NCBI GenBank assembly: GCA_019594055.1
Contig: JAFDTY010000002.1
Span: forward strand, 1 to 45,393
DNA length: 45,393 nt
Direction of reading: 5' to 3'
DNA from: Candidatus Haladaptatiplasma halalkaliphilum
GTDB taxonomy: Archaea > Thermoplasmatota > Thermoplasmata > Halarchaeoplasmatales > Halarchaeoplasmataceae
Part shown: positions 96-38,987 of the stretch, one piece after another
How positions within the stretch are numbered: position 1 is the stretch's first letter
Layout: every line of letters starts with the position of its first letter
Notes under the pieces: generated by a model
The model's input: only the letters and a program-made list of their open reading frames with translations
Told to the model about the DNA's origin: nothing
Database searches by the model: none
Translations under genes and position numbers: made by a program

Positions 96-110
96 TATAT
101 ACCGTAAAAC

Positions 111-2053: not shown

Positions 2054-2403
2054 ATCATATCCCTTCGAAAGTTCAGGAACCGATCTACCCTGGACATATT
2101 CCTGTACGACCTTGTGTTTGAACTCGTTGGAATATCTTATGATATATCACCTTCTACATCTTCATGAAAAATCGTTGTTCCTCCGTGAAGTTTACTCTGT
2201 TCAATAGAGGGTCATCGACATAACATCATTTTATAATTTTTGTAAACGGTAAGGGGATCCATTTCATCCCGTTATCCCACGGGATCATATTCAGGTGTAC
2301 CTGATGTGATCACCGCTACGGAGACAAAATCCGCTGAGGGGTATGACCCCGAATTCCGATTCTTGCGGAAAATATTATTATCTCCCTCAGGATACCTCAG
2401 CAG

Positions 2404-2877: not shown

Positions 2878-2926
2878 ATACAAGGTAACGAGCGAAGGGT
2901 ATATAATACATGAACTGATTACAGGT

Positions 2927-3259
2927 GTGATTAGTTTGGCTAACAAGAAGTACAACAGCGAAGAAGAGGTAATAAGGGTACCGTACCCACGCAGAAGGGA
3001 AGGACAGATGTTCGCCATAGCCGATAAGATGCTGGGTGGCGGTAGGATACACGTTGTTTGCGAGGACGGGAAGTCACGTATGGGCAGAATACCCGGAAAA
3101 CTCAAGAAGAGGATGTGGATCCGTGAAGGAGACCTTCTCATAGTCAATCCATGGGACTTTCAGGATGAAAAGTGCGAGGTACAATACAGGTATACCCGAA
3201 CCCAGGTGAGCTATCTGAAGAGAAAGAATGACATACCCTCATCCATAGATATATTCTGA
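2927..3259 (+). CDS. eif1a: Translation initiation factor aIF-1A
   Basis: The S1-like OB core reads GQMFAIADKMLGGGRIHVVCEDGKSRMGRIPGKLKKRMWIREGDLLIVNPWDF, which is typical of a/eIF1A. The track start is a GTG. Confidence 0.9.
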   Translation: MISLANKKYNSEEEVIRVPYPRRREGQMFAIADKMLGGGRIHVVCEDGKSRMGRIPGKLKKRMWIREGDLLIVNPWDFQDEKCEVQYRYTRTQVSYLKRKNDIPSSIDIF

Positions 3260-3312
3260 CCCTCAAGGGAGCATAGAAAGAACATTATACCACCATATAT
3301 CTACCACAAGGT

Positions 3313-3477
3313 ATGAAGCGGGAACTTATGGATATCCTTCGATGTCCAAAATGCAAGGGTGTTCTCGAGCTTGAGGTTTCCCTGGAAGAAGAGGAGATAG
3401 AGGAAGGCACACTCTTTTGTGACTCATGTAAAAGGAAATACCCCGTCGAGAAGGGCATACCTGACATGCTGGTATGA
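3313..3477 (+). CDS. trm112: Trm112-like small zinc-ribbon protein (methyltransferase activator family)
   Basis: I translated this 54-aa ORF by hand; it is below the track cutoff. The product is MKRELMDILRCPKCKGVLELEVSLEEEEIEEGTLFCDSCKRKYPVEKGIPDMLV. It has CPxC...CxxC and the C-terminal YP[IV]xxGIPxML signature of Trm112/UPF0434. Confidence 0.7.
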   Translation: MKRELMDILRCPKCKGVLELEVSLEEEEIEEGTLFCDSCKRKYPVEKGIPDMLV

Positions 3478-3492
3478 AGTCGTCCCCGTTTT

Positions 3493-4446
3493 TTAGTGTT
3501 TTTTTCGTCCGTCCATGCAGTTGTACGAGCAAAATTGAACTTCATATTGCTCTACGAACTTTCTCTTCCTCGAAAAATCCTTGCCGCAGATATCACAGGT
3601 CAACGTTATGGCCTGCTCCTCCCAACTTTTCTTGCATCCGTAGGAACAGAGTTGTTCCTCGCTCCTATCTATCAATATCCTCTTTCTTTTGAAATCATCA
3701 CCGCAGTATTCGCAGGCTACCGTTACCAGCTCGTCTCTAATGGGCCATCTTTTCTTGCATTCATAGGAGCAGAATTGATGCTCGGACCTATCCGCCAATC
3801 CCTTCTTCCTGGTGAACTCCCGGTCGCAGTACTCGCAGTGCAGCACCAGTATATCGTTCCTTGTTTCCCACATGTCCCTGCATCGGTAGGTACAGAAATG
3901 ATGTTTCCTCATCTCGGCCAGAGCCTTGAGTCTTGTGAATTCCCGGCCGCAGTACTCACATCCCACGGCAACCCTGTCTTCCCTGAACTTCCATCTCTCG
4001 AAACATTCTGTCGAACAGAATAGGTTCCCGTTCCTGATCACTTCAGAAGAATCTGGGATGTTACCGCAAAAATCGCATACGACTTTTTCGGTGGCGTGCT
4101 CATCATTGTCCATGAAGACGGAATCCATCCTTTTTGATTCCCATTTATCCCTGCAATCTTTGGAACAAAAATGATCTCCCGTCATGCTGTTGATCACTTC
4201 GAAACCGGAAACCTTTTTCCCGCAAAAACCGCACTCCTCCGTTTCCATGTCCCTCACGTGTTCCAGAAGTGCCTCCGCCCTTTCCCTGCCCATACCTTTT
4301 ATCCCCTGGAGGTCTTCCAGCTTCAAAAGGGTAAGCTCGTCCACTGTATTGACGGATAACTCCGAGATGAGCACTTCCGCCAGTGAAGCTCCTATACCGG
4401 GAACCTTCATAAGTTCATCCTTCAAGTCTTCTGTTCTTCTGTCCAT
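3493..4446 (-). CDS. Helix-hairpin-helix protein with six tandem TRASH/FCS-type zinc-finger repeats
   Basis: The N-terminus has two HhH motifs (VPGIGASLAEVL and LQGIKGMGRERAEAL). These are followed by six units of C-x2-C-x(16-19)-[FL]C-[ST]-x-x-C, for example CEYCGREFTRLKALAEMRKHHFCTYRC. Confidence 0.7.
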   Translation of the reverse strand: MDRRTEDLKDELMKVPGIGASLAEVLISELSVNTVDELTLLKLEDLQGIKGMGRERAEALLEHVRDMETEECGFCGKKVSGFEVINSMTGDHFCSKDCRDKWESKRMDSVFMDNDEHATEKVVCDFCGNIPDSSEVIRNGNLFCSTECFERWKFREDRVAVGCEYCGREFTRLKALAEMRKHHFCTYRCRDMWETRNDILVLHCEYCDREFTRKKGLADRSEHQFCSYECKKRWPIRDELVTVACEYCGDDFKRKRILIDRSEEQLCSYGCKKSWEEQAITLTCDICGKDFSRKRKFVEQYEVQFCSYNCMDGRKKH

Positions 4447-4515
4447 ACTTACAGTATAATCATATGCAAAATGCTGTTATAAGATATTTACTTGAATTTA
4501 GCAGATAGCTTGGAA

Positions 4516-5010
4516 TCAAAGATAATCTTTCTGCAGCCTGACCACCTCGGTGCTGGTCCCGGCATCCCGGTACCTTTCCATGGGTTCCCGGTTCAATTCG
4601 AGGAAGTGGGGCCCCCACTTGAACAGGGATAACAATCCCTGGGCCTGCTCTTCCTCATCCAGTATGAAGAGTGCCGCTGCCAGGGCCTCCGCGGTGGTGA
4701 GCTTCAGAGGTCTGCCGTAATTCACCGGGTTGGCAGCCACGAGATACGGAAGTGCCCTTCCGTTGGAATACCTTTTCAACTTTGTATCTGCGTTTTTCCA
4801 TGTGCAGTCCACCGCCTTTATCCCACCGGTGAGTGCCCTTTCCCTGTCCTCGGATGATACTGCTCTATCCGAAAGGGGTGTCAGGAAGATCCCGTCCCGT
4901 CCCAGTTCGTTGACATCCTTCAATTTGACAGCTAAACCCTTTCCCAGTATCTTATGTGCCGTGCATTTTTTCGGGTCGCACTCACCGTAATCGTATATGT
5001 AAAGTTCCAT
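4516..5010 (-). CDS. tsr3: Tsr3-like small-subunit rRNA aminocarboxypropyltransferase (DUF367)
   Basis: The N-terminus YDYGECDPKKCTAHKL, and the segments AVDCTWK and LPYLVAANPVNYGRPLKLTTAEALAAAL, match the Tsr3 family pattern. Confidence 0.8.
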   Translation of the reverse strand: MELYIYDYGECDPKKCTAHKILGKGLAVKLKDVNELGRDGIFLTPLSDRAVSSEDRERALTGGIKAVDCTWKNADTKLKRYSNGRALPYLVAANPVNYGRPLKLTTAEALAAALFILDEEEQAQGLLSLFKWGPHFLELNREPMERYRDAGTSTEVVRLQKDYL

Positions 5011-5015
5011 GGGTC

Positions 5016-6284
5016 TTAACTCTCGAGATACCTCTTAACCATCTTTATGGCGCAGACGTCTCCGCACATGGAGCAGGTGTCCTGATCCCCTATGGGCCTT
5101 TCACTGCGGTACTTTCGCGCCTTTTCCGGGTCCACCACACCCTTGAACATCCTCTCCCAGTCCAGGTCCTTACGTGCACTGGAAACCTCCCTGTCTATAC
5201 CCGTATCGACACCTCGGGCTATGTCCGCGGCATGGGCGGCTATCCTGGATGCGATGGTGCCTTCCCTGACGTCATCCACATCGGGCAGGCCGAGGTGCTC
5301 CGACGGGGTCACGTAACATAGAAAATCGGCACCCTCGTAGGCAGCCAGGGCACCGCCGATGGCACCCACGATATGGTCGTACCCCGGTGCGAAATCGGTG
5401 ACCAGGGGACCCAGGACGTAAAAGGGGGCATCGTCGCACAATTTTTTCTGTATCTTCACGTTGGCGGATATCTGGTCCATGGGTACGTGACCGGGGCCCT
5501 CCACCATGGCCTGAACCTTGGCCTTGCGGGACCTTTTCACCAGCTCTCCCAGTGTGAGGAGTTCCTGTATCTGAGGCCTGTCGGTAGCATCGGCGATGGA
5601 ACCGGGTCGCAAGCCGTCACCGAGGCTCAGGGTAAGATCGTACTCTCTGGCTATCTCAAGTAAATAATCGAACTCCCGATAGAGCGGATTTTCCTCCTGG
5701 TTATGCAGTATCCAGGCGGTAAGGAATGAACCGCCCCGGCTCACCACATCGGTGAGTCTTCCCGATTCCTTCAGGGATCCCACCGCATTTCTGGTCACGC
5801 CGCAGTGTACCGTCACGAAATCAACGCCGTCCCTGGCATGCAGACGTATACTGTTGAACATATCGTCCGAGGTCATGTCAACGATGGCACCTTCCCGTGC
5901 CTTCTTCAAACCGCACTGGTAGATGGGGACGCTTCCCAGGGGTAGTGTGGTCTCGCCGATCATTGTACGTCTGATCTCATCCACATCTCCCCCGGTGCTC
6001 AGGTCCATCACCGTGTCCGCACCGTATTTTTCTGCGACCTTCAATTTCTCCAGTTCCAGACCTACATGGTGCATGTCTCCGGAGGTGCCTATGTTAACAT
6101 TCACTTTTACCCGGAGTCCCTTTCCTATGGCGGTGGGTCTCGGTCCGTGTATGGAATTGTAAGGGAGCACTGCAAAACCCTTTGCAATGAGACTGGCGAG
6201 TTTTTCCGCTTTCATGGATTCGGTTACGGCACACTGTTCCACCACATCGGGTACACCCCTTTCACATTCTTCCATGAGTGTCAT
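5016..6284 (-). CDS. thiC: Phosphomethylpyrimidine synthase ThiC
   Basis: The 422-aa product has characteristic blocks DTVMDLSTGG, FVTVHCGV, MVEGPGHVP, APFYVLGPLVTD, and the C-terminal CSMCGxxC iron-sulfur motif. Confidence 0.95.
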   Translation of the reverse strand: MTLMEECERGVPDVVEQCAVTESMKAEKLASLIAKGFAVLPYNSIHGPRPTAIGKGLRVKVNVNIGTSGDMHHVGLELEKLKVAEKYGADTVMDLSTGGDVDEIRRTMIGETTLPLGSVPIYQCGLKKAREGAIVDMTSDDMFNSIRLHARDGVDFVTVHCGVTRNAVGSLKESGRLTDVVSRGGSFLTAWILHNQEENPLYREFDYLLEIAREYDLTLSLGDGLRPGSIADATDRPQIQELLTLGELVKRSRKAKVQAMVEGPGHVPMDQISANVKIQKKLCDDAPFYVLGPLVTDFAPGYDHIVGAIGGALAAYEGADFLCYVTPSEHLGLPDVDDVREGTIASRIAAHAADIARGVDTGIDREVSSARKDLDWERMFKGVVDPEKARKYRSERPIGDQDTCSMCGDVCAIKMVKRYLES

Positions 6285-6405
6285 CGTGGTTCAATGAAGG
6301 GTCGAACATTATAACCTTTTGGATTGACAGCCGGTAAAAGAGAGCTATCTAATGTAAAAAACTAAATATGTTATGCTTTATCTTAAGCTGCCAAGGTGTT
6401 AATCT

Positions 6406-8646
6406 ATGGTAGAAGAAGAGATGACTTGCCCCGTATGCGATTCGAAGATACCCGTGGATTCGGATAAATGTACTTTCTGTGGTATCGAGACGGAACTGTT
6501 ACGCATGGTGGAAGAGAAAGGAGGAATCGTAGACGATGGGGTGAATGAGGGTCCTGTACCCGAGGAGACCTTGATCTTCGAATGCCCTATATGTGAAACA
6601 GATGTTGCCGAGGATGCAAAACGATGCCCTAAATGCGGGGCGATATTCGAGGAAGGAGTGGAAGATGAGGTGATAGAGGACGAGCTGGAGGCGGATTTCA
6701 ATGAAAGGCTAGCGGAAACAAGGCAGAGTTTATCCACGGTAAGAGCAATGGGAATAGGGCTAGATCACCTGAAAGCACTACTCAGGGATGCCACAACCGC
6801 GGGTTCTAACGGTGAATACAAACGAGGTATCCGGATCACGGATGAATGCATACGATCTGCACAGCATATAGAGGATATAAACGAGAGGGTGGTCTCAGCG
6901 AGGCATCTGATTATTGAGCTAAAGGACCTGGGAAAGGACCCCGATGTATACCTGGATTTTTTACGTGAGGCGGTAAAAAAATTGGACAGCGGACTCTACG
7001 ACCAAGCCACCACGGAGATCGAGAACATCAACATCATGATGGAGGAAGAGCTGGAAAGCCTGAAAACAAAAACCCGTGAGTTGGAGGCGGAATTCAAAGA
7101 TAAATTCGAAGCCGCCAAGAAGAAACTTCTTGTGATCAGGGACGGTGAGATAAACATAGAGGAACAGAGGGGATTATTGAGGATGGCCAGGGACGCCGAG
7201 AGTGAAGGTGATCATCAGAGGGCGATAGAGCACCTCGACGAACTTCTGCTTTCATGCGAAAGCGTATCCACCATATTGGACATCATCGAGAAATTTAAAG
7301 AAACCTTAAATATGCTGAGAGAAAGGGGACTGGAACACCGATCCTACGTTCAGAACATCAGAAAAGGTAAGGGGATGGCCGATGAGGGGCGCTACCAAGA
7401 GGCCGAGGAGGTCATGGCTAAAACCCTCGAAGAGGCGGAAAATGCCCTGACCTGTGAAAGAGTTCTGAGCGATACCGAGAGTAGAGAACTGTATAACGAC
7501 ATGCGTGAAATTGTCAACGACCTGATGGAAAGGGTGATGAAAAGTCACATTTCACATGAACGTATCGACAGGATGATAGACAGGGCGTCGGAACAAGAGG
7601 GCAAGGGGAATACAGACACTGCGGCCCGGATACTGGAAAAGGTAGTGGGTAAGGCTGAAAAACTGCTCTTGATACGTAATATGATAGACCAGGGGAAGGT
7701 AAGATTAAAGGAATTGAAGAAATACGGCAAGGTGGACAAATCATACCTTGATGCCCTGAAGGAAGGCAAGAAATTGGCGGACAAGGGTGATTACGACACG
7801 GCCGTCAAGTTGGTGACCGATACAATAGAAGAGATGGATAACAAGATAAGCAAGACCTCCGGTGGTGGGGTCGCCGAAATAAGCAGGAAAACTTCCATAA
7901 AGGACATAGAGGACATGGTGTCCGAATTGAAGGATTTATTGTCAACTGCAAAAAAGCACGGTATAAAGGTGGAAGGAGGTCGCGAGATAATCTCGGAGGC
8001 CCTTGAAAGCGTTGCAGACAAGGATTTTGATAATACCCTCGAACTGTTAAGAAAAGGTAAGACCAGGATAATCGATTACCTGAAAGATGTCATTGACGGC
8101 AAGGTGGTCTCCCTTGAGCTGGCCATGGATGGCATATCAAAAGATGATGTGAAAACGGTTGAAAGGTACCTGGAACAGGTAAAACATACCGTGGAAGCCC
8201 ACAAGATATTCGAGGCCCTCGAGTACCTCTCCAAGGCGAATTCCCTCGTTGAGGTTTCCGAGGAGCCCGTGGGTGAAGCAGAATCCAACGTTGCATACGC
8301 GGGAAAGCTCTTATTCGATGCCGAGATGCTTGGAATAGATGTTACCCAGGCGAACGAACTACTGGATAAGGCCAAACTCGAACTAGAAGTGGGGGATTGG
8401 GAAAGTGCCGATGAATTCGCAGGTGACGCACGTGAAAGGATATATCAGAATGTACCCGCCAGACTTCAATCACTGGTCAGGGAGGCTCAAGAGGACCTTA
8501 AGAAGGCCAAGATATTCGGTATCAACGTATCCGAGGAGATAGAAATACTGAAGAGCGCCACCACTGCAAAGGATCAAGGTGATATGGTGAAATGCCTAGC
8601 CTTCATGAAGCGTTACAAGGAAAGGATAGAATTGTTGAAGGTTTGA
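6406..8646 (+). CDS. Double zinc-ribbon protein with about 10 TPR/MIT-like helical repeats (paralog family A)
   Basis: The N-terminus has CPVCDSKIPVDSDKCTFCG and CPICETDVAEDAKRCPKCG. These are followed by recurring units x-G-[IV]-[DN]-[VI]-x(5)-L-L-x-x-A-x(6,7)-G-[DE]-[YW]-x-x-A. It is a paralog of 29125..33483 and 37787..38917. Confidence 0.7.
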   Translation: MVEEEMTCPVCDSKIPVDSDKCTFCGIETELLRMVEEKGGIVDDGVNEGPVPEETLIFECPICETDVAEDAKRCPKCGAIFEEGVEDEVIEDELEADFNERLAETRQSLSTVRAMGIGLDHLKALLRDATTAGSNGEYKRGIRITDECIRSAQHIEDINERVVSARHLIIELKDLGKDPDVYLDFLREAVKKLDSGLYDQATTEIENINIMMEEELESLKTKTRELEAEFKDKFEAAKKKLLVIRDGEINIEEQRGLLRMARDAESEGDHQRAIEHLDELLLSCESVSTILDIIEKFKETLNMLRERGLEHRSYVQNIRKGKGMADEGRYQEAEEVMAKTLEEAENALTCERVLSDTESRELYNDMREIVNDLMERVMKSHISHERIDRMIDRASEQEGKGNTDTAARILEKVVGKAEKLLLIRNMIDQGKVRLKELKKYGKVDKSYLDALKEGKKLADKGDYDTAVKLVTDTIEEMDNKISKTSGGGVAEISRKTSIKDIEDMVSELKDLLSTAKKHGIKVEGGREIISEALESVADKDFDNTLELLRKGKTRIIDYLKDVIDGKVVSLELAMDGISKDDVKTVERYLEQVKHTVEAHKIFEALEYLSKANSLVEVSEEPVGEAESNVAYAGKLLFDAEMLGIDVTQANELLDKAKLELEVGDWESADEFAGDARERIYQNVPARLQSLVREAQEDLKKAKIFGINVSEEIEILKSATTAKDQGDMVKCLAFMKRYKERIELLKV

Positions 8647-8713
8647 CCTCTCCGTTCTCCCCCGTTATGTCGTATCCGAAGGTTTTATCTCCTAAAAGAT
8701 AGTTATACAATAC

Positions 8714-9631
8714 ATGGAAGAAGAATTGTATTCACTTTCACATGATGAGATAGCGAAAAGGATATCATCCATGGAGATACGGGGTGCGGCATTCATAGCC
8801 AGGGCCGCAGCTATCGCACTTAAAAACGCCGCTGAATCCTTCCACGGGACGGACATGGGTGAGTTCCGGTCCCATATGTCCGGGGCCGCAGATGTGATAG
8901 GCTCCACCCGTCCGTCGGCTGTTTCACTACCCAACGCGATACGTTATGTTCTGGGTTCAGGAGAACACGATACCGTTGACGAAGCCAGAGACTACATGGT
9001 TGAAAGGAGCCGTCGGTTCGTTGAGAATTCGCACATGGCTTCCAAAAGGATAGCGGAGTACGGTGGTAAAAGGCTCAAGGACGGAGATGTGCTGCTCACC
9101 CACTGCAACAGCTCACTGGCCATAGGTGCCATGAAGTATGCATGGGGCCAGGGGAAGAAGATAAGCGTATTTGCCACGGAATCCCGGCCGAAAAAACAGG
9201 GTTACATAACGGTGCGCCAGCTTGCGGAGCACGGCATACCCGTGAACCTGATAGTCGATTCGGCGGTAAGGTATTTCATGAATCAGGTGGACCACGTTTA
9301 CATAGGGGCGGACAGTATAGCCTCCAACGGTGCGGTGATCAACAAGATCGGTACTTCCCAGGTCGCCCTGTGTGCCCATGAATCTCGCGTTCCCGTGACC
9401 GTATGCGCCGAGACATACAAATTCTCCAGGGAAACAACCTTCGGCGACCTGATAAGGATAGAGGAGCGGGACCCGTCGGAGATAGTCGAGCCTGCAGATT
9501 TTCCCGGTGTAAACATAAGAAATCCTGTCTTCGATGCCACCTCCGAAAGGTATATCGACGCCATAGTTACGGAGAAAGGTATTATATCCCCCTCTAGCGC
9601 TTACCATATAATAACGGAGATGGAAGAATGA
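8714..9631 (+). CDS. Ribose-1,5-bisphosphate isomerase (eIF-2B alpha/beta/delta-like, e2b2 family)
   Basis: The product shows block-by-block resemblance to the archaeal R15P isomerase family: MEIRGA, TRPSAVSLPNAIRYV, THCNS, ESRPKKQG, VDSAVRY, GADSIASNGAVINKIGT, AETYKF. Its stop overlaps the rbcL start (ATGA at 9628..9631). Confidence 0.85.
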   Translation: MEEELYSLSHDEIAKRISSMEIRGAAFIARAAAIALKNAAESFHGTDMGEFRSHMSGAADVIGSTRPSAVSLPNAIRYVLGSGEHDTVDEARDYMVERSRRFVENSHMASKRIAEYGGKRLKDGDVLLTHCNSSLAIGAMKYAWGQGKKISVFATESRPKKQGYITVRQLAEHGIPVNLIVDSAVRYFMNQVDHVYIGADSIASNGAVINKIGTSQVALCAHESRVPVTVCAETYKFSRETTFGDLIRIEERDPSEIVEPADFPGVNIRNPVFDATSERYIDAIVTEKGIISPSSAYHIITEMEE

Positions 9632-10863
9632 AAAACGAATATCTAGCCCTGGGCGAGGAATTGGATCCCGAAGGATACTTAATCTGCGATTACAGGGTAA
9701 AGAGCGATTTACCCATAGAAACCGCCGGCTCACGTATAGCCGAGGAGGAATCCACGGGTACGTGGACCAGACCCACGACACTTACGGAAGACATATACGA
9801 GAGATACGGTGCCAAGGTGGTCATGGCCCAAGGTAACATGGTGCGTGTGGGATATCCAGTGATCGATTTTTCAGGTGAGTTCGGAGGCGTTCCCCAGATA
9901 CTCAGCATAATAGCCGGTAACCTCTTCGGACTGGAGTCCCTACGGGGTGTAAGGCTCCAGGACATATGGATACCGAAGGTCATCACCGAAAGATACCCGG
10001 GCCCGAGGTACGGTATCTCGGGCCTTAGAAAAATACTGGATAGGCCGGAAAAGCCCCTGATAGGAACCATAGTAAAACCAAAGATAGGGTTACCGCCCAA
10101 GGAGTTTGCGGATTATGTGTACGAGGCCGGAAAGGGCGGGCTCACCAACTCAAAGGACGACGAGACCCTGGTGGACCAGGATTTCTGCCCCCTGGAGGCC
10201 CGGGTCAGTGCGGTGAGCGAGAAGCTGGACCTTCTGGAAGAAGAGGGACATCCGATGATACATGCCCACAACATTAGCACCTCGGCACATGAGATACTGG
10301 ATGCCGCGGATATCGCCCTTGAGAACGGTGCAAGGCAGTTGATGGTGGACGTCTTCACCGAGGGCTTCTCCGGGGTTCAGGTGCTTGCGGAAGATCCATC
10401 TGTGGGCGTACCACTACACGTGCACCGTGCCATGCACGGCGCATTCACCAGAGATCCCGAACACGGCATCTCCATGCCGGTGGCCTGCAAACTGGTAAGG
10501 ATGGTGGGTGGAGATTCCTTCCATATCGGAACCTACGGCACGGGAAAGATGCACGCAAACATATCGGAAGAACTGCACTCGGAGAAGGCTCTAACGGAGG
10601 AGATGCACGGTATACATCCAACGATACCCGTATCAAGCGGGGGTTTGCACCCTGGCCACATGCCCGAATTGATGGCTAAGAGCGGTAACGATGTACAGAT
10701 ACAGGCAGGGGGAGGTGTTTCGGGGCACCCTGACGGCGTCAGGGCGGGCGCTACCGCATTGATGCAGGCTGTGGATGCAGCTTTCGACGGAATACCCCTC
10801 AGGGAGTATGCAAAGAGTCATGACGAACTGAGAAAGGCACTAGAAACGTGGGGATACAGATGA
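9628..10863 (+). CDS. rbcL: Ribulose-1,5-bisphosphate carboxylase/oxygenase large subunit, form III
   Basis: The catalytic signature positions are all present: KPK(I)GL, the carbamylated-Lys block KDDE, HVHRAMHG, FHIGT..GKM, SSGGLHPG, and AGGGVSGHPDG. The gene is flanked by the two AMP-pathway genes. Confidence 0.85.
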   Translation: MKNEYLALGEELDPEGYLICDYRVKSDLPIETAGSRIAEEESTGTWTRPTTLTEDIYERYGAKVVMAQGNMVRVGYPVIDFSGEFGGVPQILSIIAGNLFGLESLRGVRLQDIWIPKVITERYPGPRYGISGLRKILDRPEKPLIGTIVKPKIGLPPKEFADYVYEAGKGGLTNSKDDETLVDQDFCPLEARVSAVSEKLDLLEEEGHPMIHAHNISTSAHEILDAADIALENGARQLMVDVFTEGFSGVQVLAEDPSVGVPLHVHRAMHGAFTRDPEHGISMPVACKLVRMVGGDSFHIGTYGTGKMHANISEELHSEKALTEEMHGIHPTIPVSSGGLHPGHMPELMAKSGNDVQIQAGGGVSGHPDGVRAGATALMQAVDAAFDGIPLREYAKSHDELRKALETWGYR

Positions 10864-12386
10864 TAGAGAGGTTGAGGGCCAGGACGATAGATATCGAGGC
10901 GGGTGACTGCAAGGTCATCCTCAACAAGAAAGATGCGGAAAAGATGGGCCTGCGGAGTCAGGGCCGTGTGAAGGTGGGCTCTTCCCATGGTCATACAGTT
11001 GCCATAGTCGAGTTGTCCGAAACCCTGGTCAAAGAGGGGGAGATAGGTGTTCTGCACAGGGTGGTCACCAATATCAAAGTCCGGGAGGGAGAGGAGCTTA
11101 CCATCGTACCATCGGGAAGGCCCAAATCCATAGATCATATACGTGAAAAACTGGAAGGCAAGGAACTATCGGAACATGCGATAAACGAGATAATCCGCGA
11201 CATAACCGATCGGAGGCTTTCGGACATAGAATTATCGGCTTATGTGTGCGGTGTATACGCACGGGGGATGAACCTCAGGGAGACCAAGGACCTTACCCTG
11301 GCCATGATCAAAACCGGGGAGACCATAGAATTCGATAAACACCCCGTATTCGACCATCACAGCATCGGGGGAGTTCCAGGTAACAAGATAACACTTCTGG
11401 TGGTACCCATAGTCGCCGCTGCCGGCCTGCTGATACCCAAGAGTAGTTCCAGGGCCATATCCAGCGCCGGAGGTACCGCGGACATATTCGAGGTACTCGC
11501 CGATGTTACCCTTTCGTTATCCCAGATCAAATCCATTACCGAAGAGATCGGAGGCGTTATCTCATGGGGCGGTGCGGTAAATCTTGCACCCAGCGACGAC
11601 CTGATAATCCGGGCGGAATATCCTCTGCGGATAGACCCCTACGCCCAGGTGCTGGCATCCGTACTGTCCAAGAAGAAGGCCTTCGGGGCGGAGTATCTGG
11701 TTATGGACATACCCGTGGGACCCAATACGAAGGTCGAGGACATGGAGCAGGGAAGAAAGTATGCCAGGGACTTCGTCACCCTGGGTGAGGAGATCGGCAT
11801 CAACGTACGCTGCGCCCTTAGCTACGGCGGCCAACCTGTGGGAGAAGGCGTAGGCCCTGCCATCGAGGCCCGGGAGGCTCTGGCGGCCCTGGAAGGAAAG
11901 GAGGTGCCCAACAGTTTGATAGAAAAATCCGTGGAGCTGGCGGGCATGATACTCGAACAGGGCGGGTTACCTGAGGGAAGAGGAAAGGAAAAGGCAAGAA
12001 AGATACTTTCCGGCGGGGCCGCACTGAACAAGATGAAAGAGATAATTCAGTACCAGGGAGGCGACCCCGAGGTTACGTCGGACGACGTACCCATAGGCAA
12101 ATATTCCCAGGATATATTGTGCAACAGGGACGGGTATGTGGGCGCCATAAACAACCGCTGTGTCATCGAGATCGTACGGGCCGCCGGAGGGCCCCACGAC
12201 AAGGGCGCCGGGTTCATACTGAAGAAGAAGAGGGGTGACAAGGTGGATAAGGACGAATTGCTCTACACCATCTACTCTGAAAACAAGAGCAATCTGAAGG
12301 AAGCGGTCAAACTAGCCAACCATCTGAAACCCTTCTTCATAGAAGGTATGATACTGGAAAAGCACCCATCCTATCGCATGGTCTGA
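10860..12386 (+). CDS. deoA: AMP phosphorylase (thymidine phosphorylase family)
   Basis: The N-terminal AMPpase-specific domain (IDIEAGDCKVILNKKDAEKMGL) is present. So are the blocks HSIGGVPGNK, VVPIVAAAGL, SSRAISSAGGTAD, WGGAVNLAPSDD and YGGQPVGEGVGPAIEAREAL. I chose the ATG at 10860 because it overlaps the rbcL stop (ATGA); the track start at 10848 is non-ATG. Confidence 0.85.
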   Translation: MIERLRARTIDIEAGDCKVILNKKDAEKMGLRSQGRVKVGSSHGHTVAIVELSETLVKEGEIGVLHRVVTNIKVREGEELTIVPSGRPKSIDHIREKLEGKELSEHAINEIIRDITDRRLSDIELSAYVCGVYARGMNLRETKDLTLAMIKTGETIEFDKHPVFDHHSIGGVPGNKITLLVVPIVAAAGLLIPKSSSRAISSAGGTADIFEVLADVTLSLSQIKSITEEIGGVISWGGAVNLAPSDDLIIRAEYPLRIDPYAQVLASVLSKKKAFGAEYLVMDIPVGPNTKVEDMEQGRKYARDFVTLGEEIGINVRCALSYGGQPVGEGVGPAIEAREALAALEGKEVPNSLIEKSVELAGMILEQGGLPEGRGKEKARKILSGGAALNKMKEIIQYQGGDPEVTSDDVPIGKYSQDILCNRDGYVGAINNRCVIEIVRAAGGPHDKGAGFILKKKRGDKVDKDELLYTIYSENKSNLKEAVKLANHLKPFFIEGMILEKHPSYRMV

Positions 12387-28217: not shown

Positions 28218-28901
28218 TCACGCCCTGAATTTTCCTTCCAGAAACTTTTCTGCAGCCCTGGAACAAGTATCATGGGTCAATCTCCGGTCTAGTTCCGGTT
28301 TAACAAGCAGCCTTTTTAGGGCGTGAACAAGCCCTGTCAGGTTCCCGGTAAAATCCCAGTCCTCCAGATACGCCATACGTATGATACCACCATCCTCCGG
28401 TGGGAGTATGTTGGGGTGATAAATCCTGGATTTCCAGATCACCCTGGGTGCTTCGAAGGGATATCCCCGTCCCAGACGTATGTCCAACTGATGGGTGAAA
28501 GTCATGGCTAGCGAATTTCCCACCGTCACCGGGCCGGGTGTATCCTTGAACACCAAGGTAAGATACAGGATGTCCCCCTCCCGGACCGTGTCCATATCCA
28601 GATCCATGCCTTTAAGGGAGTCTATCTCGTTTTCGATCCTCTTTCTCCACATATCTTCGGGGAGGGTTCTCTCCGTGTCTGTGCGTATCAGGGTTAGTTC
28701 CTCGCCCCCCTCAACACCGGTGGCCGACCATATAACATCCTTTTGGACCTTCCTGGATGAAAGGTGTAGTTCATAGTTACCTTCCAATCCCCAATACTTC
28801 ACCAATCCCTCGATGGTGTTATCCACCTTTTTTCGAGGGTCAACCTCTATATCGACCCGTTCTCCGCCTTTCTCGTCGAATACCTTCAACCTTATGGACA
28901 T
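28218..28901 (-). CDS. Possible beta-grasp (ubiquitin-like) domain fused to a UBC/E2-like core that lacks the catalytic cysteine
   Basis: The C-terminal half reads GRGYPFEAPRVIWKSRIYHPNILPPEDGGIIRMAYLEDWDFTGNLTGLVHALKRLL. It fits the E2 signature YPF-x-PP-x-V-x-F-x(3)-I-YHPNI-x(n)-G-x-I-C-x(3)-L-x(3)-W, but has Arg where the Cys belongs. The N-terminal 75 aa (MSIRLKVFDEKGGERVDIEVD...GGEELTLIR) have a beta-beta-alpha-beta-beta alternation. The start is set at the ATG at 28901, 23 nt downstream of a TATA-like box; the track ORF extends to 28982. Confidence 0.6.
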   Translation of the reverse strand: MSIRLKVFDEKGGERVDIEVDPRKKVDNTIEGLVKYWGLEGNYELHLSSRKVQKDVIWSATGVEGGEELTLIRTDTERTLPEDMWRKRIENEIDSLKGMDLDMDTVREGDILYLTLVFKDTPGPVTVGNSLAMTFTHQLDIRLGRGYPFEAPRVIWKSRIYHPNILPPEDGGIIRMAYLEDWDFTGNLTGLVHALKRLLVKPELDRRLTHDTCSRAAEKFLEGKFRA

Positions 28902-28923
28902 GGAGAGAACACAAGACAGGGTA

Positions 28924-28934
28924 GATATAGCTTT
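28924..28934 (-). promoter_or_regulatory. TATA-like box for the E2-like gene in the divergent intergenic region
   Basis: AAAGCTATATC on the minus strand lies about 23 nt upstream of the ATG at 28901. Confidence 0.35.
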
Positions 28935-29124
28935 TTTTCCCTTTCTCGGCGCATGTTCTTCCCGAAAACTATATATCGTCAATTATCTTAGAGTCTGTTC
29001 CATATATATGCTCCGGGGCATTACACAGATTTAGGATTACCATATTCATGAATGCCATGGGTAGTAAAACTTATTATTTCCCGGAAGCATACCCGGTTAG
29101 AAAGAACAACGGAGATGTAAAAGA

Positions 29125-32100
29125 TTGTCAGGGAAGTTCCTCAAGGCTAGGCAACTGGCCAAGGAGATGGAAGAAAAAGCAAAGAAAACGGCCGAAGAGA
29201 AGAAAAAAGCAACTGATAGTTTGCAAAAGGCCGAAGATTTGCTGGATTTTTCCCTGGAACTGGGGGTTGACGTGGGTGAGGCCAAGGACCTCATAGACAA
29301 CGCTTCCAAGAAGATCGTTGACATGCGCTGGGAAGAGGGTGTGGAGGATCTGAACAAGGCTATGGAAGTACTGAGTCAAGCGAACTTCAGTGTACTCGAT
29401 GATTTTTTAGACGGTACAAAGGAAATACACGAACTCATGGGGGATACGGAGAGGTGTGATGGCTCTCGGAAAAGTATGGAAAGTGCCATTGAACTTGCCG
29501 GAGAAGGTAAATTCAAAGAGGCCTTGGAATTAGCCAAAGAGGCCATGGAACTAGCCAAGCTAGAGATCCACGAGAAGCTGACGGACGAATTACATTCGGT
29601 TGAAACCCATATGCTCACCCTCGAGGGTATGAATAAGGATACCACCGAACTCAGGGATATACTCGACCAGGCCAGGGCTTTGGCGGAAGAAAATAATTTC
29701 GGTGAGGCATCCACACTAATATCCGGCGTGAATGAAAAGCTCCACGGAGATCTACAGGAATCCCTCAACGAGAGCATATCACGACTTGAGATCCTGGTGA
29801 CAAAAATCCGTAACGATGGTGAGGATACAACCGATGTTGAGGCCTCCATAAGCAAGGCCAAGTCACGTGCTAAAAACCTGGATATCGACGGTGCCATGGA
29901 GATGATAAAGGAGGCCCAGGGTATCATAAACGAGTCTCTGGAGAATGTGGTGTTGGTAAGATTCCAGGAACTCAGGTCGGGCATGGATGATGCCATGGCG
30001 ATAGAGGCCGACATGGGACCGGTGAACATACTTTTGAAACAGGCCGAATCCATGAGGGACGAAAGGCTTTTCAGCGAAGCCTACAATATAATTGAAGATG
30101 CCTTCGAAAAGCTCGGGGAGGCAAAATTCCACCGGGTTTTAAGGACCATAGCCGAGTCCAGGGAGAATTTTATCAAGGCAAAGAATATTGGTATCGATAT
30201 ATCCGAACCCATGGAATTGCTCAACAAGGCAAGAGATGCTCTGAAGGAAGGGAATCACAAGGGCGCCCTGGATTGGGCCATGGCAGGAAGAAGCAAGGTC
30301 AAGGAACTGGTCAAGGAATACGATGAGATCGAGGCCAGGATAGAACGATCCAAAAAGATGATCGCCGACTTGAAGGAGACAAACATAGACCTGGAGGTTG
30401 CCGGAGAGATCATATCCGAGGCACAAGGTTACTTTTTGGATAAAGATTACCAGACCGCCGTGGAAAAACTGGATGAGTTCCAAGAACACGCTGATAAGGT
30501 AGCCTACGGCAAAGTGATGGAACTAATCGAGGAATTCGAGATGAATATGATGACTGCCGATGAATTGGGTCTGGATGTGGCTGAGCACTCGGAAATGCTT
30601 GAAAAATCCATCGCCCAGATCAAATCGGGTATATATTTGGAGGCCGGAAAGATAGCCCAGGAGAACATCGGCGAATTGAGTGAAGCTATATCCAGGGAAA
30701 TGAAAGTCCGGTACGAGAACATCAGAGTACTGGTGGAGAAGATCAGAAAGGACCTGGGTGAAGACGAGGACCTATCCGAATTGAACCGGGTAACGGAGGA
30801 CATGGAAAAAGTGAGAGATGTCATGGAGAAAGGCTTTCACAGGGAAGCCATCGGCATAATTCAAGGCATTTCCGAGAAACTGGAGCGCTGGCAGGTGGGT
30901 GAAGCGGACGGAGCCCTTGCAGATGCCAGGGAACTGGTGGAACTCGTGGAAAGACTCGGGATAGAGAACATAGACCTGAAAGATTACATGAACAATATCG
31001 AAAAGGCCGAAAAGGCCCTTGAGAATGAAGATTACACCACAGCCATACAAACCTCGCACTCTATCGTGGATGAATTGAACAACAGGATGCGAAAGACCTC
31101 GGAAGAACAGTTCGCACATGCAAAGATGGAGGTGGTGAAGGCAAAGAAGGCTGGGGTTGACATAGAGGAATCGAGAAAGAGACTGATAGACTGCAAGAAG
31201 CAGATAAGGGATGAAAACTATGCGGAGTCCATCAAACTCTCCATGAAGATCCAGGAGGAGGCTCTTACCCTCAGGGAAAAAAGGAGAAGCAGCTACGAGA
31301 TAATCACCAGAATATCCGAGGAACTGACAAGGTTGAGACGGGAGGAGGGATTGAAGGACGTAGGTGCCGCCAAACAGATACTGTTAAAATCGAAGGAAAG
31401 TTTCCAGAACAGGGATTACACCCAGGCCGAGAAACTTGCCGAGCAGGCGATGCTCAAGATAGAAGAGGTTCACGGCAGGTATAACTACGAGAACAAGGAG
31501 AAAAATCTCAAGGAACTGATCGCCGAAGCCGAGGCCATCGGTATGGATGCTTCCCAGGAGGAGGATGCACTAGAGCTGTGCATCAGAAATTCGAATAGGG
31601 GTGAATATGAAATTGCCGTGGAGAAATTGAGCGAAACAATAGAATCACTTGTAAGCAAGATGGAAGGATATGTTAAGCCCGAGATAGAAAGGACAAAGGA
31701 CATAATCGACTCTGCCAAGGATATAAAGATAGACCTCTCTGGACCGGAAACGAAACTAAATGAAAGTATGGAGTTATTGAAGAAGAAGGATTTCAAGAAT
31801 TCCGTAGAGAAGATAGAGGCGTGTCGAAGGGAGATCGAGGATATACGTGACAAAAGCAGAAAGGCGGCCAGCCAGGTTAAACAGGTCAAGGAACGGATGA
31901 CGGAGGCAAAAGACCTTTATGCCGATGTAACCGAAGCGGAGATAATATTGGGCAGGGCCATGGATGCACTCAAAAAGGACGATTATGATCGGACGATAAC
32001 AGAGGCATTGAATGCGGAGAAGAGCATATCCCGTGCGGAAAAAATAAGGGTTGAACGATTGCTGGCGGCCTTCGAATCCAAAACAAGTGATATACGAAGG

Positions 32101-33483
32101 CAAGGGATCAATACCGCTCTGGCCGATAACCTTTTGCGACGTGCCGAGAAGGCCATGGAGAAGGGTAGTTATAAAGAGGCGATCAACCTTGCCATGCAGA
32201 GCGAGGGAGAGCTGGAAAGGATAGAGCTTCAACAGGATATCTCCAAAAGATGCATATCAACCACCAGTGACAAGGTGAATGCTGCCAAGGAGGTCGGCAT
32301 AAAGGTGGAAGATGCGGACAAATTGCTGAAACAGGCGATCCAGGCCTATCAGGCCGGCTTCTATGTAAAGGCCTTCGACAATGCGGTGAAGAGCGGGGAC
32401 GTACTCAACAAGACAGTCAAGGCCCACGATAGCACCAAGGAACTCATGGGATTGCTTGACAAAGCGGTCAAGAGCTGCGAATACCTCGGATGGGATGTTC
32501 AAGATGCGAAGAAGTATATGACGGAAGGGGAGCAGGCATTCCAGCGCGGTCTTTACGTGAAAGCACTTGTGAGCACCAGGAAGGCAGAAAAGTCACTGGT
32601 CTCCTTGGAAAAAGACATACCTGACAAACTGAAGGAAACCGAGAACATAATAAAGAGGATGAAGCAATTGAAACATGATGCCGGCGGATCCGAAGAATTG
32701 CTCAGGCAGGCCAAACTATCCCAGGGCATAGGTGACGTACTAGAAACCTTCATGTTAATAGCGGATGCCATGAAGAAAGCCGGTGTAGATGTGCATAACG
32801 AGTACAACAGTTCCATCACCGAGGCCGTATCCCTGCTGGCAAGCGCGCACAAATTCGGTGCCGATATAGGGGAGGCGGAAAGACTTGTGGAGGAAGCGAG
32901 AACCCTGGAGTTCGAAGACATCGGCAAGGCAAGGGATATGGCCATGGAAGCGCTTAAAGCCGTTGAAAACACCCTTGACCCCTACAGCCCCAAACTGGAG
33001 ATGGAGTTCAAGGGTCGGATAGATCCGGAAGGATGGAGTAAGGTGACCTTCGTGATGACCAATACCGGTAAGGGTGTAGGCAAATCACCATCACTGGAGT
33101 TCCAGGGATGTGAACATAAGGACATGGTAATGCCTTCCATGTTGAAGGCCGGGGAAACCAAGGAGATCGAAGTGGAACTCAAGGCAATCGACGAGAAGGT
33201 AACCGTAAAGGGAAGCGTAAAGAGGGTATTCGATGACAAAAGCATCGAAGATGTTCTGGAAATAGAGCCCAAGGCCGGTTCCTACCAAGTCCAAAAATCT
33301 ACGGGTGAGGAGAAATGCGACCTCTGCAAGGGGAACATAAAGAAGGGACTGGATATGATAGTCTGTAGTTGTGGCGAAACCTACCACAAAACATGCGGTG
33401 AAAGGGGAAACGAGTGCAAGAAATGCGGCACCGGTTTCGCACCAAAGAAGGTCACATCCAAGAGGGTTTCCCTCAAATTGTGA
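29125..33483 (+). CDS. Giant (1452 aa) helical-repeat protein with C-terminal beta-sandwich and C4HC3 zinc finger (paralog family A)
   Basis: About 20 units of the same motif as in 6406..8646 are present, for example NIGIDISEPMELLNKARDALKEGNHKGALDWA and RQGINTALADNLLRRAEKAMEKGSYKEAINLA. These are followed by a beta-rich segment (KVTFVMTNTGKGVGKSPSLEF...ETKEIEVELKA) and then CDLC-x12-CSC-x4-H-x2-C-x6-C-x2-C. The start is a TTG at 29125 with GGAG 11 nt upstream; an alternative ATG lies at 29167. Confidence 0.75.
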   Translation: MSGKFLKARQLAKEMEEKAKKTAEEKKKATDSLQKAEDLLDFSLELGVDVGEAKDLIDNASKKIVDMRWEEGVEDLNKAMEVLSQANFSVLDDFLDGTKEIHELMGDTERCDGSRKSMESAIELAGEGKFKEALELAKEAMELAKLEIHEKLTDELHSVETHMLTLEGMNKDTTELRDILDQARALAEENNFGEASTLISGVNEKLHGDLQESLNESISRLEILVTKIRNDGEDTTDVEASISKAKSRAKNLDIDGAMEMIKEAQGIINESLENVVLVRFQELRSGMDDAMAIEADMGPVNILLKQAESMRDERLFSEAYNIIEDAFEKLGEAKFHRVLRTIAESRENFIKAKNIGIDISEPMELLNKARDALKEGNHKGALDWAMAGRSKVKELVKEYDEIEARIERSKKMIADLKETNIDLEVAGEIISEAQGYFLDKDYQTAVEKLDEFQEHADKVAYGKVMELIEEFEMNMMTADELGLDVAEHSEMLEKSIAQIKSGIYLEAGKIAQENIGELSEAISREMKVRYENIRVLVEKIRKDLGEDEDLSELNRVTEDMEKVRDVMEKGFHREAIGIIQGISEKLERWQVGEADGALADARELVELVERLGIENIDLKDYMNNIEKAEKALENEDYTTAIQTSHSIVDELNNRMRKTSEEQFAHAKMEVVKAKKAGVDIEESRKRLIDCKKQIRDENYAESIKLSMKIQEEALTLREKRRSSYEIITRISEELTRLRREEGLKDVGAAKQILLKSKESFQNRDYTQAEKLAEQAMLKIEEVHGRYNYENKEKNLKELIAEAEAIGMDASQEEDALELCIRNSNRGEYEIAVEKLSETIESLVSKMEGYVKPEIERTKDIIDSAKDIKIDLSGPETKLNESMELLKKKDFKNSVEKIEACRREIEDIRDKSRKAASQVKQVKERMTEAKDLYADVTEAEIILGRAMDALKKDDYDRTITEALNAEKSISRAEKIRVERLLAAFESKTSDIRRQGINTALADNLLRRAEKAMEKGSYKEAINLAMQSEGELERIELQQDISKRCISTTSDKVNAAKEVGIKVEDADKLLKQAIQAYQAGFYVKAFDNAVKSGDVLNKTVKAHDSTKELMGLLDKAVKSCEYLGWDVQDAKKYMTEGEQAFQRGLYVKALVSTRKAEKSLVSLEKDIPDKLKETENIIKRMKQLKHDAGGSEELLRQAKLSQGIGDVLETFMLIADAMKKAGVDVHNEYNSSITEAVSLLASAHKFGADIGEAERLVEEARTLEFEDIGKARDMAMEALKAVENTLDPYSPKLEMEFKGRIDPEGWSKVTFVMTNTGKGVGKSPSLEFQGCEHKDMVMPSMLKAGETKEIEVELKAIDEKVTVKGSVKRVFDDKSIEDVLEIEPKAGSYQVQKSTGEEKCDLCKGNIKKGLDMIVCSCGETYHKTCGERGNECKKCGTGFAPKKVTSKRVSLKL

Positions 33484-37786: not shown

Positions 37787-38917
37787 GTGGTTTCCAAAAT
37801 ACAGAGGTGCCATGATTTGGTTCCAGCAAAACTGGTAGCATGTCCCATATGCGAGACGGACATAGATGCGGATAAGACCAAGTGCACGGTATGCGGAATA
37901 CCCCGGAGCCTCATCGAGCTTGATCAATCCATCGAAACCGTCAGCACCGATGAGGTGGAGTCCGTCATCAACGATCTCAACAAGGATATTTTTACACTTG
38001 ATGACGAGGAGATATGGGCGTTGACCAGAAAACTGGGCGCCATAACCAACAGCACCTCCGATGCCTCAACCATTCTCGATGAGGTGATATTCGAGTGCCC
38101 CCTTTGCGGTACCGAAGTGGGTGAGCACGATAGCAAATGCCCCGGCTGTGGGGTAGTATTCGAAGGGGACGATGAAGACGCACCTGCCCGTAGGGAGGAG
38201 TACGAGGCATTGTTCATGCAGGCAAAAGAGGAGTTCATCAAGATAAAAGACATACCCATCTCCCCTACAATCTTAAGTGACCTGCTGAAAGAGTCGATGA
38301 CCGCAAGGATTGAAGGGGATTACACAAAGGCCATCGACCGTTGCCAGGAGGTGATAAACGTATGCAAAAAAATGGGTGTGTTCAAGGACAATGTGAACAG
38401 GTCCAAGGTGCTTCTCAACGATATAAGAAAGTTGGGGGGGAATTACAAAGCACATCTGATAGCCCTTGTTGATGCGAAGGAAATGATCGAAAGGGGCGAT
38501 ATCGAGGAGAGTATCTCCGTAACAGAAAAAGTGCTTGGTGAACTGGATGTGATATACCAGTTCGAGACCTCCTTCCATGAGGTAAAAAAGGATATCAAGC
38601 GTTTCAACAACATGTCCATATCGATACCCTTCAGGGATCTGATCTCCGGGGCGCTAGTAGCAAGGAATTCGGGTGATCATGAAGAGGGGATAAAGGTCGT
38701 AAACGAGATAGTCGAGATGGTATCTCGCTTAGATGTTCAACTGGACAAGATAAGGCAGGGGAAAGAATATATCAGCCAGCTGAGGAAGAAGAAGCGGGAG
38801 TACAAGAGCCATATGGACGAACTTGTATCGGCCAAAAAGATGCTGGAGAAGGGGAAAATTGACCTGGCGGAAAACCAGCTGGATCGAGTAATGAAAAGTA
38901 TACAAGAGAAATTGTGA
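37787..38917 (+). CDS. Double zinc-ribbon protein with TPR/MIT-like helical repeats (paralog family A, short member)
   Basis: CPICETDIDADKTKCTVCG and CPLCGTEVGEHDSKCPGCG have the same spacing and order as in 6406..8646. These are followed by units such as LLKESMTARIEGDYTKAIDRC, LVDAKEMIERGDIEESISV and LVSAKKMLEKGKIDLAENQL. The start codon is a GTG. Confidence 0.7.
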   Translation: MVSKIQRCHDLVPAKLVACPICETDIDADKTKCTVCGIPRSLIELDQSIETVSTDEVESVINDLNKDIFTLDDEEIWALTRKLGAITNSTSDASTILDEVIFECPLCGTEVGEHDSKCPGCGVVFEGDDEDAPARREEYEALFMQAKEEFIKIKDIPISPTILSDLLKESMTARIEGDYTKAIDRCQEVINVCKKMGVFKDNVNRSKVLLNDIRKLGGNYKAHLIALVDAKEMIERGDIEESISVTEKVLGELDVIYQFETSFHEVKKDIKRFNNMSISIPFRDLISGALVARNSGDHEEGIKVVNEIVEMVSRLDVQLDKIRQGKEYISQLRKKKREYKSHMDELVSAKKMLEKGKIDLAENQLDRVMKSIQEKL

Positions 38918-38987
38918 ATCTTTATGTGCCTTGGACCTCCCTGACCGGCGCAAATTTTTTATTACCCGAATCGCCTGATTGGACGTA

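Follow-up and report, generated by a model that had tools for sequence, protein, structure and literature searches.

We analysed a 45,393-nt stretch of the archaeon Candidatus Haladaptatiplasma halalkaliphilum (contig JAFDTY010000002.1, assembly GCA_019594055.1), referred to here as the window, for three proteins that combine arrays of a helical repeat with zinc-ribbon or RING-like ends. The source genome comprises 1.82 Mb on 108 contigs (49.8% guanine plus cytosine) and is 90% complete. Archaeal genes in the window include eIF2-alpha, L44e, Tsr3, MetRS, and CTP synthase, and the window also encodes a form III RuBisCO with AMP phosphorylase and ribose-1,5-bisphosphate isomerase. All three open reading frames (ORFs), which were pointed out in a preliminary description drawn from the DNA letters alone, are present on the plus strand. 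They are named P0001 (6406..8646; 746 aa), P0002 or the giant (29125..33483; 1452 aa), and P0003 (37787..38917; 376 aa) throughout this text. The database record of the giant (P0153) has the identical length of 1452 aa, and that of P0003 begins at residue 11 (366 aa; P0006). All three products are soluble and acidic (pI 4.8–5.0; 34–37% D+E+K+R), and no transmembrane or signal-like hydrophobic segment was found in any of them (maximum 19-residue hydropathy <1.0). A scan for promoters and terminators around P0003 returned sites that were fewer than, or about equal to, those in shuffled sequences.

P0001 and P0003 each begin with a double zinc ribbon of the pattern C-x2-C-x10-C-x2-C-G, as had been described. 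The ribbons of P0001 lie at aa 8–26 (6427..6483) and aa 60–78 (6583..6639), and those of P0003 at aa 19–37 (37841..37897) and aa 104–122 (38096..38152). The near-identical start CPICETD[VI] was located as CPICETDV in the second ribbon of P0001 and as CPICETDI in the first ribbon of P0003. With regard to known families, the first P0001 ribbon matches UPF0547 (PF10571; 37 bits vs. a cut-off of 29), and the score for DZR (PF12773; 23.9 bits) is below its cut-off of 27.3. All eight P0001 cysteines (C8, C11, C22, and C25; C60, C63, C74, and C77) are unchanged throughout alignment A1, as are C104, C107, C118, and C121 of P0003 in alignment A3, and the ribbons are modelled as beta hairpins by AlphaFold2 (AF2). 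The repeat arrays follow, at aa 104–746 in P0001 (6715..8643; about ten three-helix bundles in the model) and at aa 132–375 in P0003 (38180..38911; four modelled bundles, delimited by the AF2 helices).

The giant is organised differently. Its array (aa 35–1289; 29227..32991) precedes a beta-rich domain (aa 1290–1389; 32992..33291), and the protein ends in the C4HC3 finger that the preliminary description had noticed (aa 1398–1434; 33316..33426). The finger scores 26.3 bits against Prok-RING_1 (PF14446), below the cut-off of 29.1. The same model is precomputed on most close homologs of P0002, and seven cysteines of the finger are invariant in 36 orthologs. No significant Pfam match was obtained for the beta-rich domain itself. 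At the equivalent position, CARDB is above its cut-off in the relatives P0186 (27.3 bits) and P0194 (32.6 bits), and the domain is probably a CARDB-like sandwich, judging from these sequence matches.

A repeat unit of about 62 residues

The three proteins share the helical repeat above chance level. BLASTP E-values were 2e-27 for P0001 and P0003, which align collinearly, 2e-9 for P0001 and P0002, and 7e-4 for P0002 and P0003. The preliminary description had proposed a unit of 35–40 aa, and its three example peptides were located in P0001 (aa 641), P0002 (aa 354), and P0003 (aa 227). We evaluated the period by BLOSUM self-similarity at each lag against 200 shuffles. P0002 peaked at lag 62 (z 6.0), P0001 at lags 60 and 132–133 (z ~4), and P0003 at lag 119 (z 7.8), and none of the three proteins had a peak at 35–40 aa. 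An iterated hidden Markov model (HMM) converged on a 49-position core recurring every ~60–64 aa, and the unit is thus a 49-aa conserved core plus a linker with a period of ~62 aa, rather than the shorter unit that had been claimed. The literal motif of the preliminary description has no match in any of the three proteins, and only its relaxed halves are enriched over shuffles. What had been seen (G-[IV]-D-[IV]...L-L...A...G-D-Y..A) is the middle of the unit, which additionally has a preceding helix and a continuation of ~13 residues.

The HMM counts nine units in P0001, 20 in P0002, and four in P0003. Those of P0001 start at aa 104, 165, 237, 297, 372, 429, 507, 635, and 693, and a tenth, divergent bundle at ~aa 541–618 is visible only in the AF2 model. 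Scores of an iterated HMM are circular, and we therefore relied on three controls: leaving one protein out, specificity in the genome, and relatives outside the training set. An HMM built from the P0002 units alone detected eight units in P0001 and two in P0003, and neither the reversed sequences nor any of 50 shuffles per protein gave a unit. The reciprocal HMM detected six units in P0002, none in its reversal, and on average 0.02 in shuffles (at most one in any of 50). Of the 4910 genomic ORFs with 80 aa or more, the repeat HMM matched seven, four of them on other contigs. Among relatives outside the training set, the spacing of the units was 60–64 aa in 39 of 112 cases and 55–69 aa in 54 of 112. 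These results support the earlier statement that one repeat unit is common to all three proteins.

The repeat was also said to be uncharacterised, which agrees with our searches in that no Pfam or NCBIfam model covers it. Matches of P0001–P0003 to these databases were restricted to zinc ribbons and RING, and those to TPR_x, YfdX, FIMAH, Uds1, and SAXB were below threshold. Sequence-profile searches of the PDB with alignments A1 and A2 gave no convincing relative, and the ESM Atlas returned only unnamed Thermoplasmatota clusters. In the literature searched, we found no description of this repeat and no archaeal counterpart of rods made of three-helix bundles. With a domain model of the ~62-aa unit, many giant proteins that are now listed as 'hypothetical' could be annotated.

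With regard to the fold, AF2 models of P0001 and P0003 were obtained from alignments of 13 and 16 rows, respectively. The P0001 model has a predicted local distance difference test score (pLDDT) of 83.9 and a predicted template modelling score (pTM) of 0.35; the corresponding values for P0003 are 82.5 and 0.59, and its helical part is mostly >90. Both models show the ribbon hairpins followed by helices of 37–48 aa alternating with helices of 13–19 aa, which are separated by turns of 3–7 residues at the G-x-D and G-D-Y motifs. The P0001 model has ten short 'B' helices, hence its estimate of about ten bundles, and low-confidence hinges at aa 351–354, 486–494, and 618–622 group these bundles as 4+2+2+2. 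The helices of P0003 span aa 132–153, 161–175, 179–215, 221–235, 239–275, 283–295, 298–334, 340–354, and 358–375.

We compared the P0003 model with 48,161 chains using VIA-align, for which the best 50 matches were listed. The P0003 ranges aa 133–198, 190–266, and 314–376 superpose on single three-helix bundles at 1.3–2.8 Å, with 1.3–2.0 Å reached over 58–70 residues, and each range runs from midway through one long helix, across a short helix, to midway through the following long helix. Single-bundle matches included AF1782 (Z 9.2; 1.9 Å, 70 residues), the designed protein 9dte_B (Z 9.1; 1.3 Å, 58 residues), LanD (Z 8.9), and sc-apCC3 (Z 8.1; 1.3 Å, 66 residues). Matches that extend over several units included BB0323-N (Z 9.7; 139 residues aligned, 4.2 Å), EzrA 4uy3_A (Z 9.3; 143 residues, 5.0 Å), the Embp FG-repeat 6gv5_A (Z 7.8; 118 residues, 3.6 Å), and EbhA 2dgj (Z 7.3; 208 residues). 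In Foldseek searches with P0003, the rows with the best geometry were designed chains of Protein A three-helix modules (TMt 0.38–0.39; root-mean-square deviation ~9 Å) and EbhA, and otherwise only designed helical repeats with low TM-scores (0.15–0.27) were returned.

The best-supported model is that the unit is a small three-helix bundle, predicted to share helices with its neighbours, and a linear head-to-tail array of triple-helical bundles with a continuous helix between units was found in the predicted models only. Following these models, the end of a long helix A would lead through the G-[IV]-D-[IV] turn into helix B of ~15 residues, and the G-D-Y turn would then open into the beginning of a further long helix (C). 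This helix would continue unbroken as helix A of the next unit, which would give a string of bundles with common connecting helices. Conserved residues map to turns, helix caps, and core, and the repeat therefore looks like a structural framework with variable surfaces.

This building principle is already known from spectrin, EzrA, and Ebh/Embp. Excerpts of the report on Embp and Ebh (PMC7587433) describe an FG-repeat of 125 aa that consists of two bundles joined by a shared helix and is ~70 Å long; six FG-repeats extend over 34.8 nm, and the estimate for Ebh is 320 nm. Our arrays are similar in that small three-helix bundles would be joined by a shared long helix in rod-like giants of many units, and the ~125-aa repeat of two bundles can be compared, as an architectural analogy only, with a two-unit super-repeat of 119 aa in P0003 and 132–133 aa in P0001. 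They differ in that no FIVAR or GA match was obtained from Pfam at E<=1 (FIMAH reaches 21.9 bits, below 24.8). Moreover, Embp and Ebh are secreted, wall-anchored adhesins, whereas P0001–P0003 are archaeal, presumably cytoplasmic proteins that carry neither signal peptide nor transmembrane segment, with zinc ribbons in P0001 and P0003. As for EzrA, excerpts of PMC4243239 describe a membrane-anchored, spectrin-like scaffold of five bundles of ~100 aa. The likeness to spectrin and EzrA lies in antiparallel triple-helical bundles arranged head to tail, in a last helix that continues into the next unit (in our models), and in a degenerate sequence that is conserved mainly at core positions. However, their unit of ~100–122 aa, as given in the same excerpts, is about twice the size of ours, and we claim no link of the repeat family to actin, FtsZ, or the membrane. 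New are the unit size of ~62 aa, the archaeal, presumably cytoplasmic setting, the repertoire of fusions, and a giant of 20 units that is free of insertions and deletions.

Family members, orthologs, and distribution

The preliminary description counted three members within 33 kb and suggested a lineage-specific expansion. This was an undercount, as at least four further members are encoded on other contigs of the same genome. The C48 member (757 aa) combines HHH_5, a zinc ribbon, and TPR with the units, and the C76 member (619 aa) joins the units to DUF835 (113.9 bits). The C100 member (341 aa) has an N-terminal transmembrane segment, units, and C-terminal zinc ribbons, and the C21 member (846 aa) carries a true TPR array with two units. 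Further fusions among relatives involve HHH_5 in P0019 and P0037, the latter also with C-terminal transmembrane segments. Using phmmer, the best paralog of P0001 was the C48 member on another contig (E 1.3e-32), followed by P0003 (7.6e-23), the C76 and C21 members, and P0002 (4.8e-7). P0002 matched only P0001, and the best paralog of P0003 was P0001; the three window proteins are thus not each other's closest homologs.

The window proteins each have positional orthologs in other metagenome-assembled genomes (MAGs) of Thermoplasmata, which is at odds with a local expansion. A P0001-like gene adjoins thiC in divergent orientation in seven of 14 loci examined, and in four of these e2b2-rbcL-deoA follows. 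In this arrangement the P0001 ortholog has thiC on one side and the archaeal AMP-salvage operon (e2b2-rbcL-deoA) on the other, as at 6406–12386 of the window and in loci L001, L006, L015, and L022. P0001 orthologs are only 22–53% identical, vs. 70–89% for the flanks in the loci examined and 60–89% for the neighbouring genes in this arrangement, which indicates much faster evolution. The order giant-queH-eIF2a-L44e-P0003-like is kept in two of 80 loci (L010 and L011). In G096, a genome of the same genus, unit-bearing frames of 1473, 749, 379, 848, and 350 aa were detected.

Relatives came nearly all from MAGs of uncultured Thermoplasmata and Thermoplasmatota, including Candidatus Saliniplasma. 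A word-based homolog search with P0001 found a single relative, P0004 (53% identity), because of the word-based nature of the search, and an exhaustive phmmer search with P0003 gave 147 matches, many of them over the zinc-ribbon region only. The zinc-ribbon subfamily ranges from about 210 to 1536 aa in length. In a survey with a 60-position profile of the helical unit, matches at E<=1e-5 were obtained in 64 of the 201 genomes that were sampled from the phylum (about a third); weak single matches among them may include false positives. The distribution was all-or-none by family: for example, matches were present in 23/24, 4/4, and 4/4 genomes of families f23, f29, and f7, vs. 0/19, 0/16, and 0/21 in f2, f20, and f30. 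On this sequence distribution, the repeat family is old and phylum-wide in Thermoplasmatota, and not a local expansion. Matches to the unit profile were also found in open frames of 3000–7300 aa, and much larger rod proteins of this repeat kind probably exist in the phylum. In three genomes of other families of the phylum (G146:C3, G174:C42, and G077:C92), unit matches lie inside frames of 5393–7295 aa.

With regard to the giant, its length is kept to a degree that is unusual for repeat proteins. The homolog search admitted lengths of 798–2541 aa and gave 45 homologs at E<=1e-5, with identity falling to 22%. Of these, counting the record of the query itself, 37 were 1438–1517 aa long. Among 36 orthologs with 21–61% identity, the mean gap fraction in P0002 columns was 0.008, no unit was gained or lost, and the unit starts recur from ortholog to ortholog. 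Units of the giant are fairly uniform in size (62–64 aa), and their conservation is uneven. Unit 6 (aa 344–407) reaches 2.81 and unit 16 (aa 982–1045) 2.65, next to 2.59 for the finger segment, and units 9, 13, and 18 are at 0.92–0.96. Units 6 and 16 are candidate docking sites for binding partners, and the fixed number of units fits the role of a ruler or spacer. Some 20 units free of insertions and deletions suggest a testable idea, namely that length matters and that units 6 and 16 dock.

Possible roles of the arrays

As a whole, we explain these observations best, and with moderate confidence, by a family of repeats that form strings of bundles and serve as rods, spacers, or docking platforms. 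The arrays would be semi-rigid cytoplasmic rods that space and present terminal heads and carry docking surfaces specific to single units. The heads held at a set distance would be the double zinc ribbons in P0001 and P0003, and the beta domain with the RING-like finger in P0002. Other members would hold DUF835, helix-hairpin-helix, TPR, or a membrane anchor instead, and the rod of the giant would have a fixed length of ~20 units. By analogy with Embp at ~2.9 nm per bundle, the rods would measure ~12 nm in P0003, up to ~29 nm in P0001 (given its hinges), and ~58 nm in the giant. The scaffold family proposed in the preliminary description is upheld as a homologous helical repeat with zinc-ribbon or RING ends, which plausibly acts as a protein-protein scaffold; this function we infer.

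Several points weigh against this interpretation. Its structural statements rest on AF2 models built from the shallow alignments given above, and the three-dimensional reading depends on fold comparison and the helix pattern rather than on inspected coordinates. The pTM of P0001 is so low that the model does not fix whether the protein as a whole is straight, curved, or closed, and a Foldseek search with the whole P0001 model returned nothing at E<=0.001, the best match being vinculin (E 0.04, TM-score ~0.1). The guide of the VIA tool puts at ~13 the Z value that a common arrangement by itself can give helical bundles, and the values of 7–10 obtained here are lower. Finally, the gene neighbourhoods of the seven genomic members are mostly housekeeping and have no common functional theme. 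Even if the models were wrong, a well-delimited new repeat family would still be at hand, and its interest would be greater if the ruler or scaffold reading proved true experimentally.

The nature of the repeat itself could be read in two other ways. We consider it scarcely credible that the repeat is a charged low-complexity coiled coil lacking a true periodic unit. The composition given above, a heptad signal at lag 7 (z 3.6 and 5.1), and high phmmer bias scores (e.g., 94.6 for P0002) would all be expected of such a coiled coil, but the peaks at lags 62 and 119 are higher than the heptad peak, and conserved G and D turn residues break the helices every ~15 and ~37 residues. The cross-protein HMMs find units in proteins outside their training (8, 2, and 6, vs. 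none in reversals and at most one in a shuffle), and the repeat HMM matches only seven of 4910 genomic ORFs, so that the periodicity is supported by the shuffle and reversal controls. In line with the TPR- and MIT-like signature noted in the preliminary description, the arrays could be hairpins of 35–40 aa, stacked into an alpha-solenoid superhelix for peptide recognition, which we regard as very improbable. Both TPR and our unit are all-alpha repeats, the G-D-Y-x-x-A-[IL] helix-cap motif is almost identical to the helix A/B junction of consensus TPRs, and two family members also carry true TPRs. The best PDB sequence matches of the unit profile are consensus TPR designs, with an E-value that arises from summing over repeats, and there are single-stretch matches to Ski3, Acl4, and HOP (E 5e-4 to 8e-4). 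Nonetheless, the similarity to TPR is limited to 19 of 60 profile positions (29–47), with each stretch alone non-significant, and the period is 62 aa rather than 34–40. The genuine TPR protein of the same genome, the C21 member, peaks at lag 34 only and not at 62. The sub-threshold Pfam matches include no TPR model at its cut-off (best TPR_14, 17.3 bits vs. 23.5), and among 30 single units TPR_2 touches two (best E 0.049) and TPR_21 and TPR_10 one each. Moreover, TPRs have two helices per unit, vs. three helical segments with common long helices in our models, where three-helix bundles are joined by continuous helices instead of hairpins forming a superhelix. The likeness at G-D-Y..A is best read as a shared helix-capping solution. 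As for MIT, weak profile matches to chitin synthase (E 0.015) and katanin (E 0.028) were obtained, and the MIT domain is a three-helix bundle of similar size (about 65–75 aa); the resemblance holds, in the models, at the level of 'three-helix bundle' only. MIT domains are single N-terminal modules, whereas the units here form arrays with shared helices. MIT was absent from the hmmscan of P0001–P0003 at E<=1, and Pfam MIT (PF04212) had no match in the genome at E<=0.01, vs. matches in three of 14 control genomes. Snf7 (PF03357) likewise had none at E<=0.01 in the 90%-complete genome, which is a weak negative considering that the control matched one of 14 genomes. No TPR or MIT entry was among the best 50 VIA-align matches listed, which is not an exclusion.

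The rods could also serve other functions than the spacing and docking that we favour. It seems unlikely that they form a membrane-proximal, spectrin- or EzrA-like cytoskeleton by which the machinery of division or of the envelope would be organised. EzrA ranks high among the structural matches that extend over several units, but the match (Z 9.3) is under the tool's guide value for helical proteins, and the unit of EzrA is longer (~100 vs. 62 aa). Some members are membrane-anchored (the C100 member at its N-terminus and P0037 at its C-terminus), a polytopic membrane protein is encoded immediately after P0003, and two GT4 glycosyltransferases follow the C76 member; set against these links, P0001, P0002, and P0003 have no transmembrane segment, and no division gene is linked in the neighbourhoods. 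Less plausible still, in our estimate, are nucleic-acid tethers, that is, rods that space DNA- or RNA-binding heads for the organisation of the chromosome or of ribonucleoproteins. Invariant four-cysteine ribbons at the N-termini, HHH_5 fused in the C48 member, P0019, and P0037, and the position of the C48 member between Lhr helicase and ArgRS would be in line with such tethers. However, DZR-type ribbons are generic and commonly serve in contacts between proteins, the acidity of the proteins is high, and no nucleic-acid-binding surface was identified.

A more elaborate version of the rod and docking-platform interpretation would assign a specific role to each protein. The giant would be a molecular ruler of ~20 bundles and, if extended like Embp, ~50–60 nm, kept at one length across the lineage so as to set how far its N-terminal end is from the RING-like head. 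This head would cooperate with the ubiquitin-like/E2-like protein encoded next to the giant. P0001 and P0003 would serve as shorter rods of the system, and the whole would be an archaeal spectrin-like scaffold network in the cytoplasm, of separate origin from the bacterial and eukaryotic ones. We consider this combination unlikely. The E2-like protein in question (28218..28982, minus strand) is the divergent neighbour of the giant and not a member of the repeat family. It matches Pfam UQ_con over aa 164–242 (35.8 bits), and HPN is followed by R in the expected position of the E2 catalytic cysteine, as read by eye. Docking by the giant, if it occurs, would help explain the deployment of this neighbouring ubiquitin-like/E2-like module.

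Neighbourhoods outside the window and at its edges gave further observations. Upstream of the C21 member (L084, G000:C21:22000-35000, positions 26–7750) are a 949-aa protein that has no Pfam match, a 236-aa KaiC-like ATPase (117.8 bits), and a 446-aa protein rich in double zinc ribbons. DUF835 is described in an excerpt of Galperin 2018 (PMC5847659) as an inactivated KaiC-like output domain, and the C21 neighbourhood together with the DUF835 fusions hints at a KaiC-type theme around the family.

Within the window, the polytopic membrane protein next to P0003 is a 426-aa product that belongs to no Pfam family (38979–40259, plus strand). Its gene begins 61 bp after P0003 and has the same orientation, and no homolog of it was found in loci L010 and L011 at E<=1e-10. 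At the contig edge (111–2053, minus strand), two adjoining ORFs of 255 and 400 aa consist nearly entirely of tandem transposase-type helix-turn-helix domains, and the 400-aa ORF scores 144.8 bits for HTH_28 and 126 bits for HTH_23, summed over many copies. A 317-aa protein (3493–4446, minus strand) combines an N-terminal HHH_5 with zinc-finger types zf-FCS, PyrI_C-like, and zf-BED, and a counterpart of 57% identity occupies the same position in locus L001.

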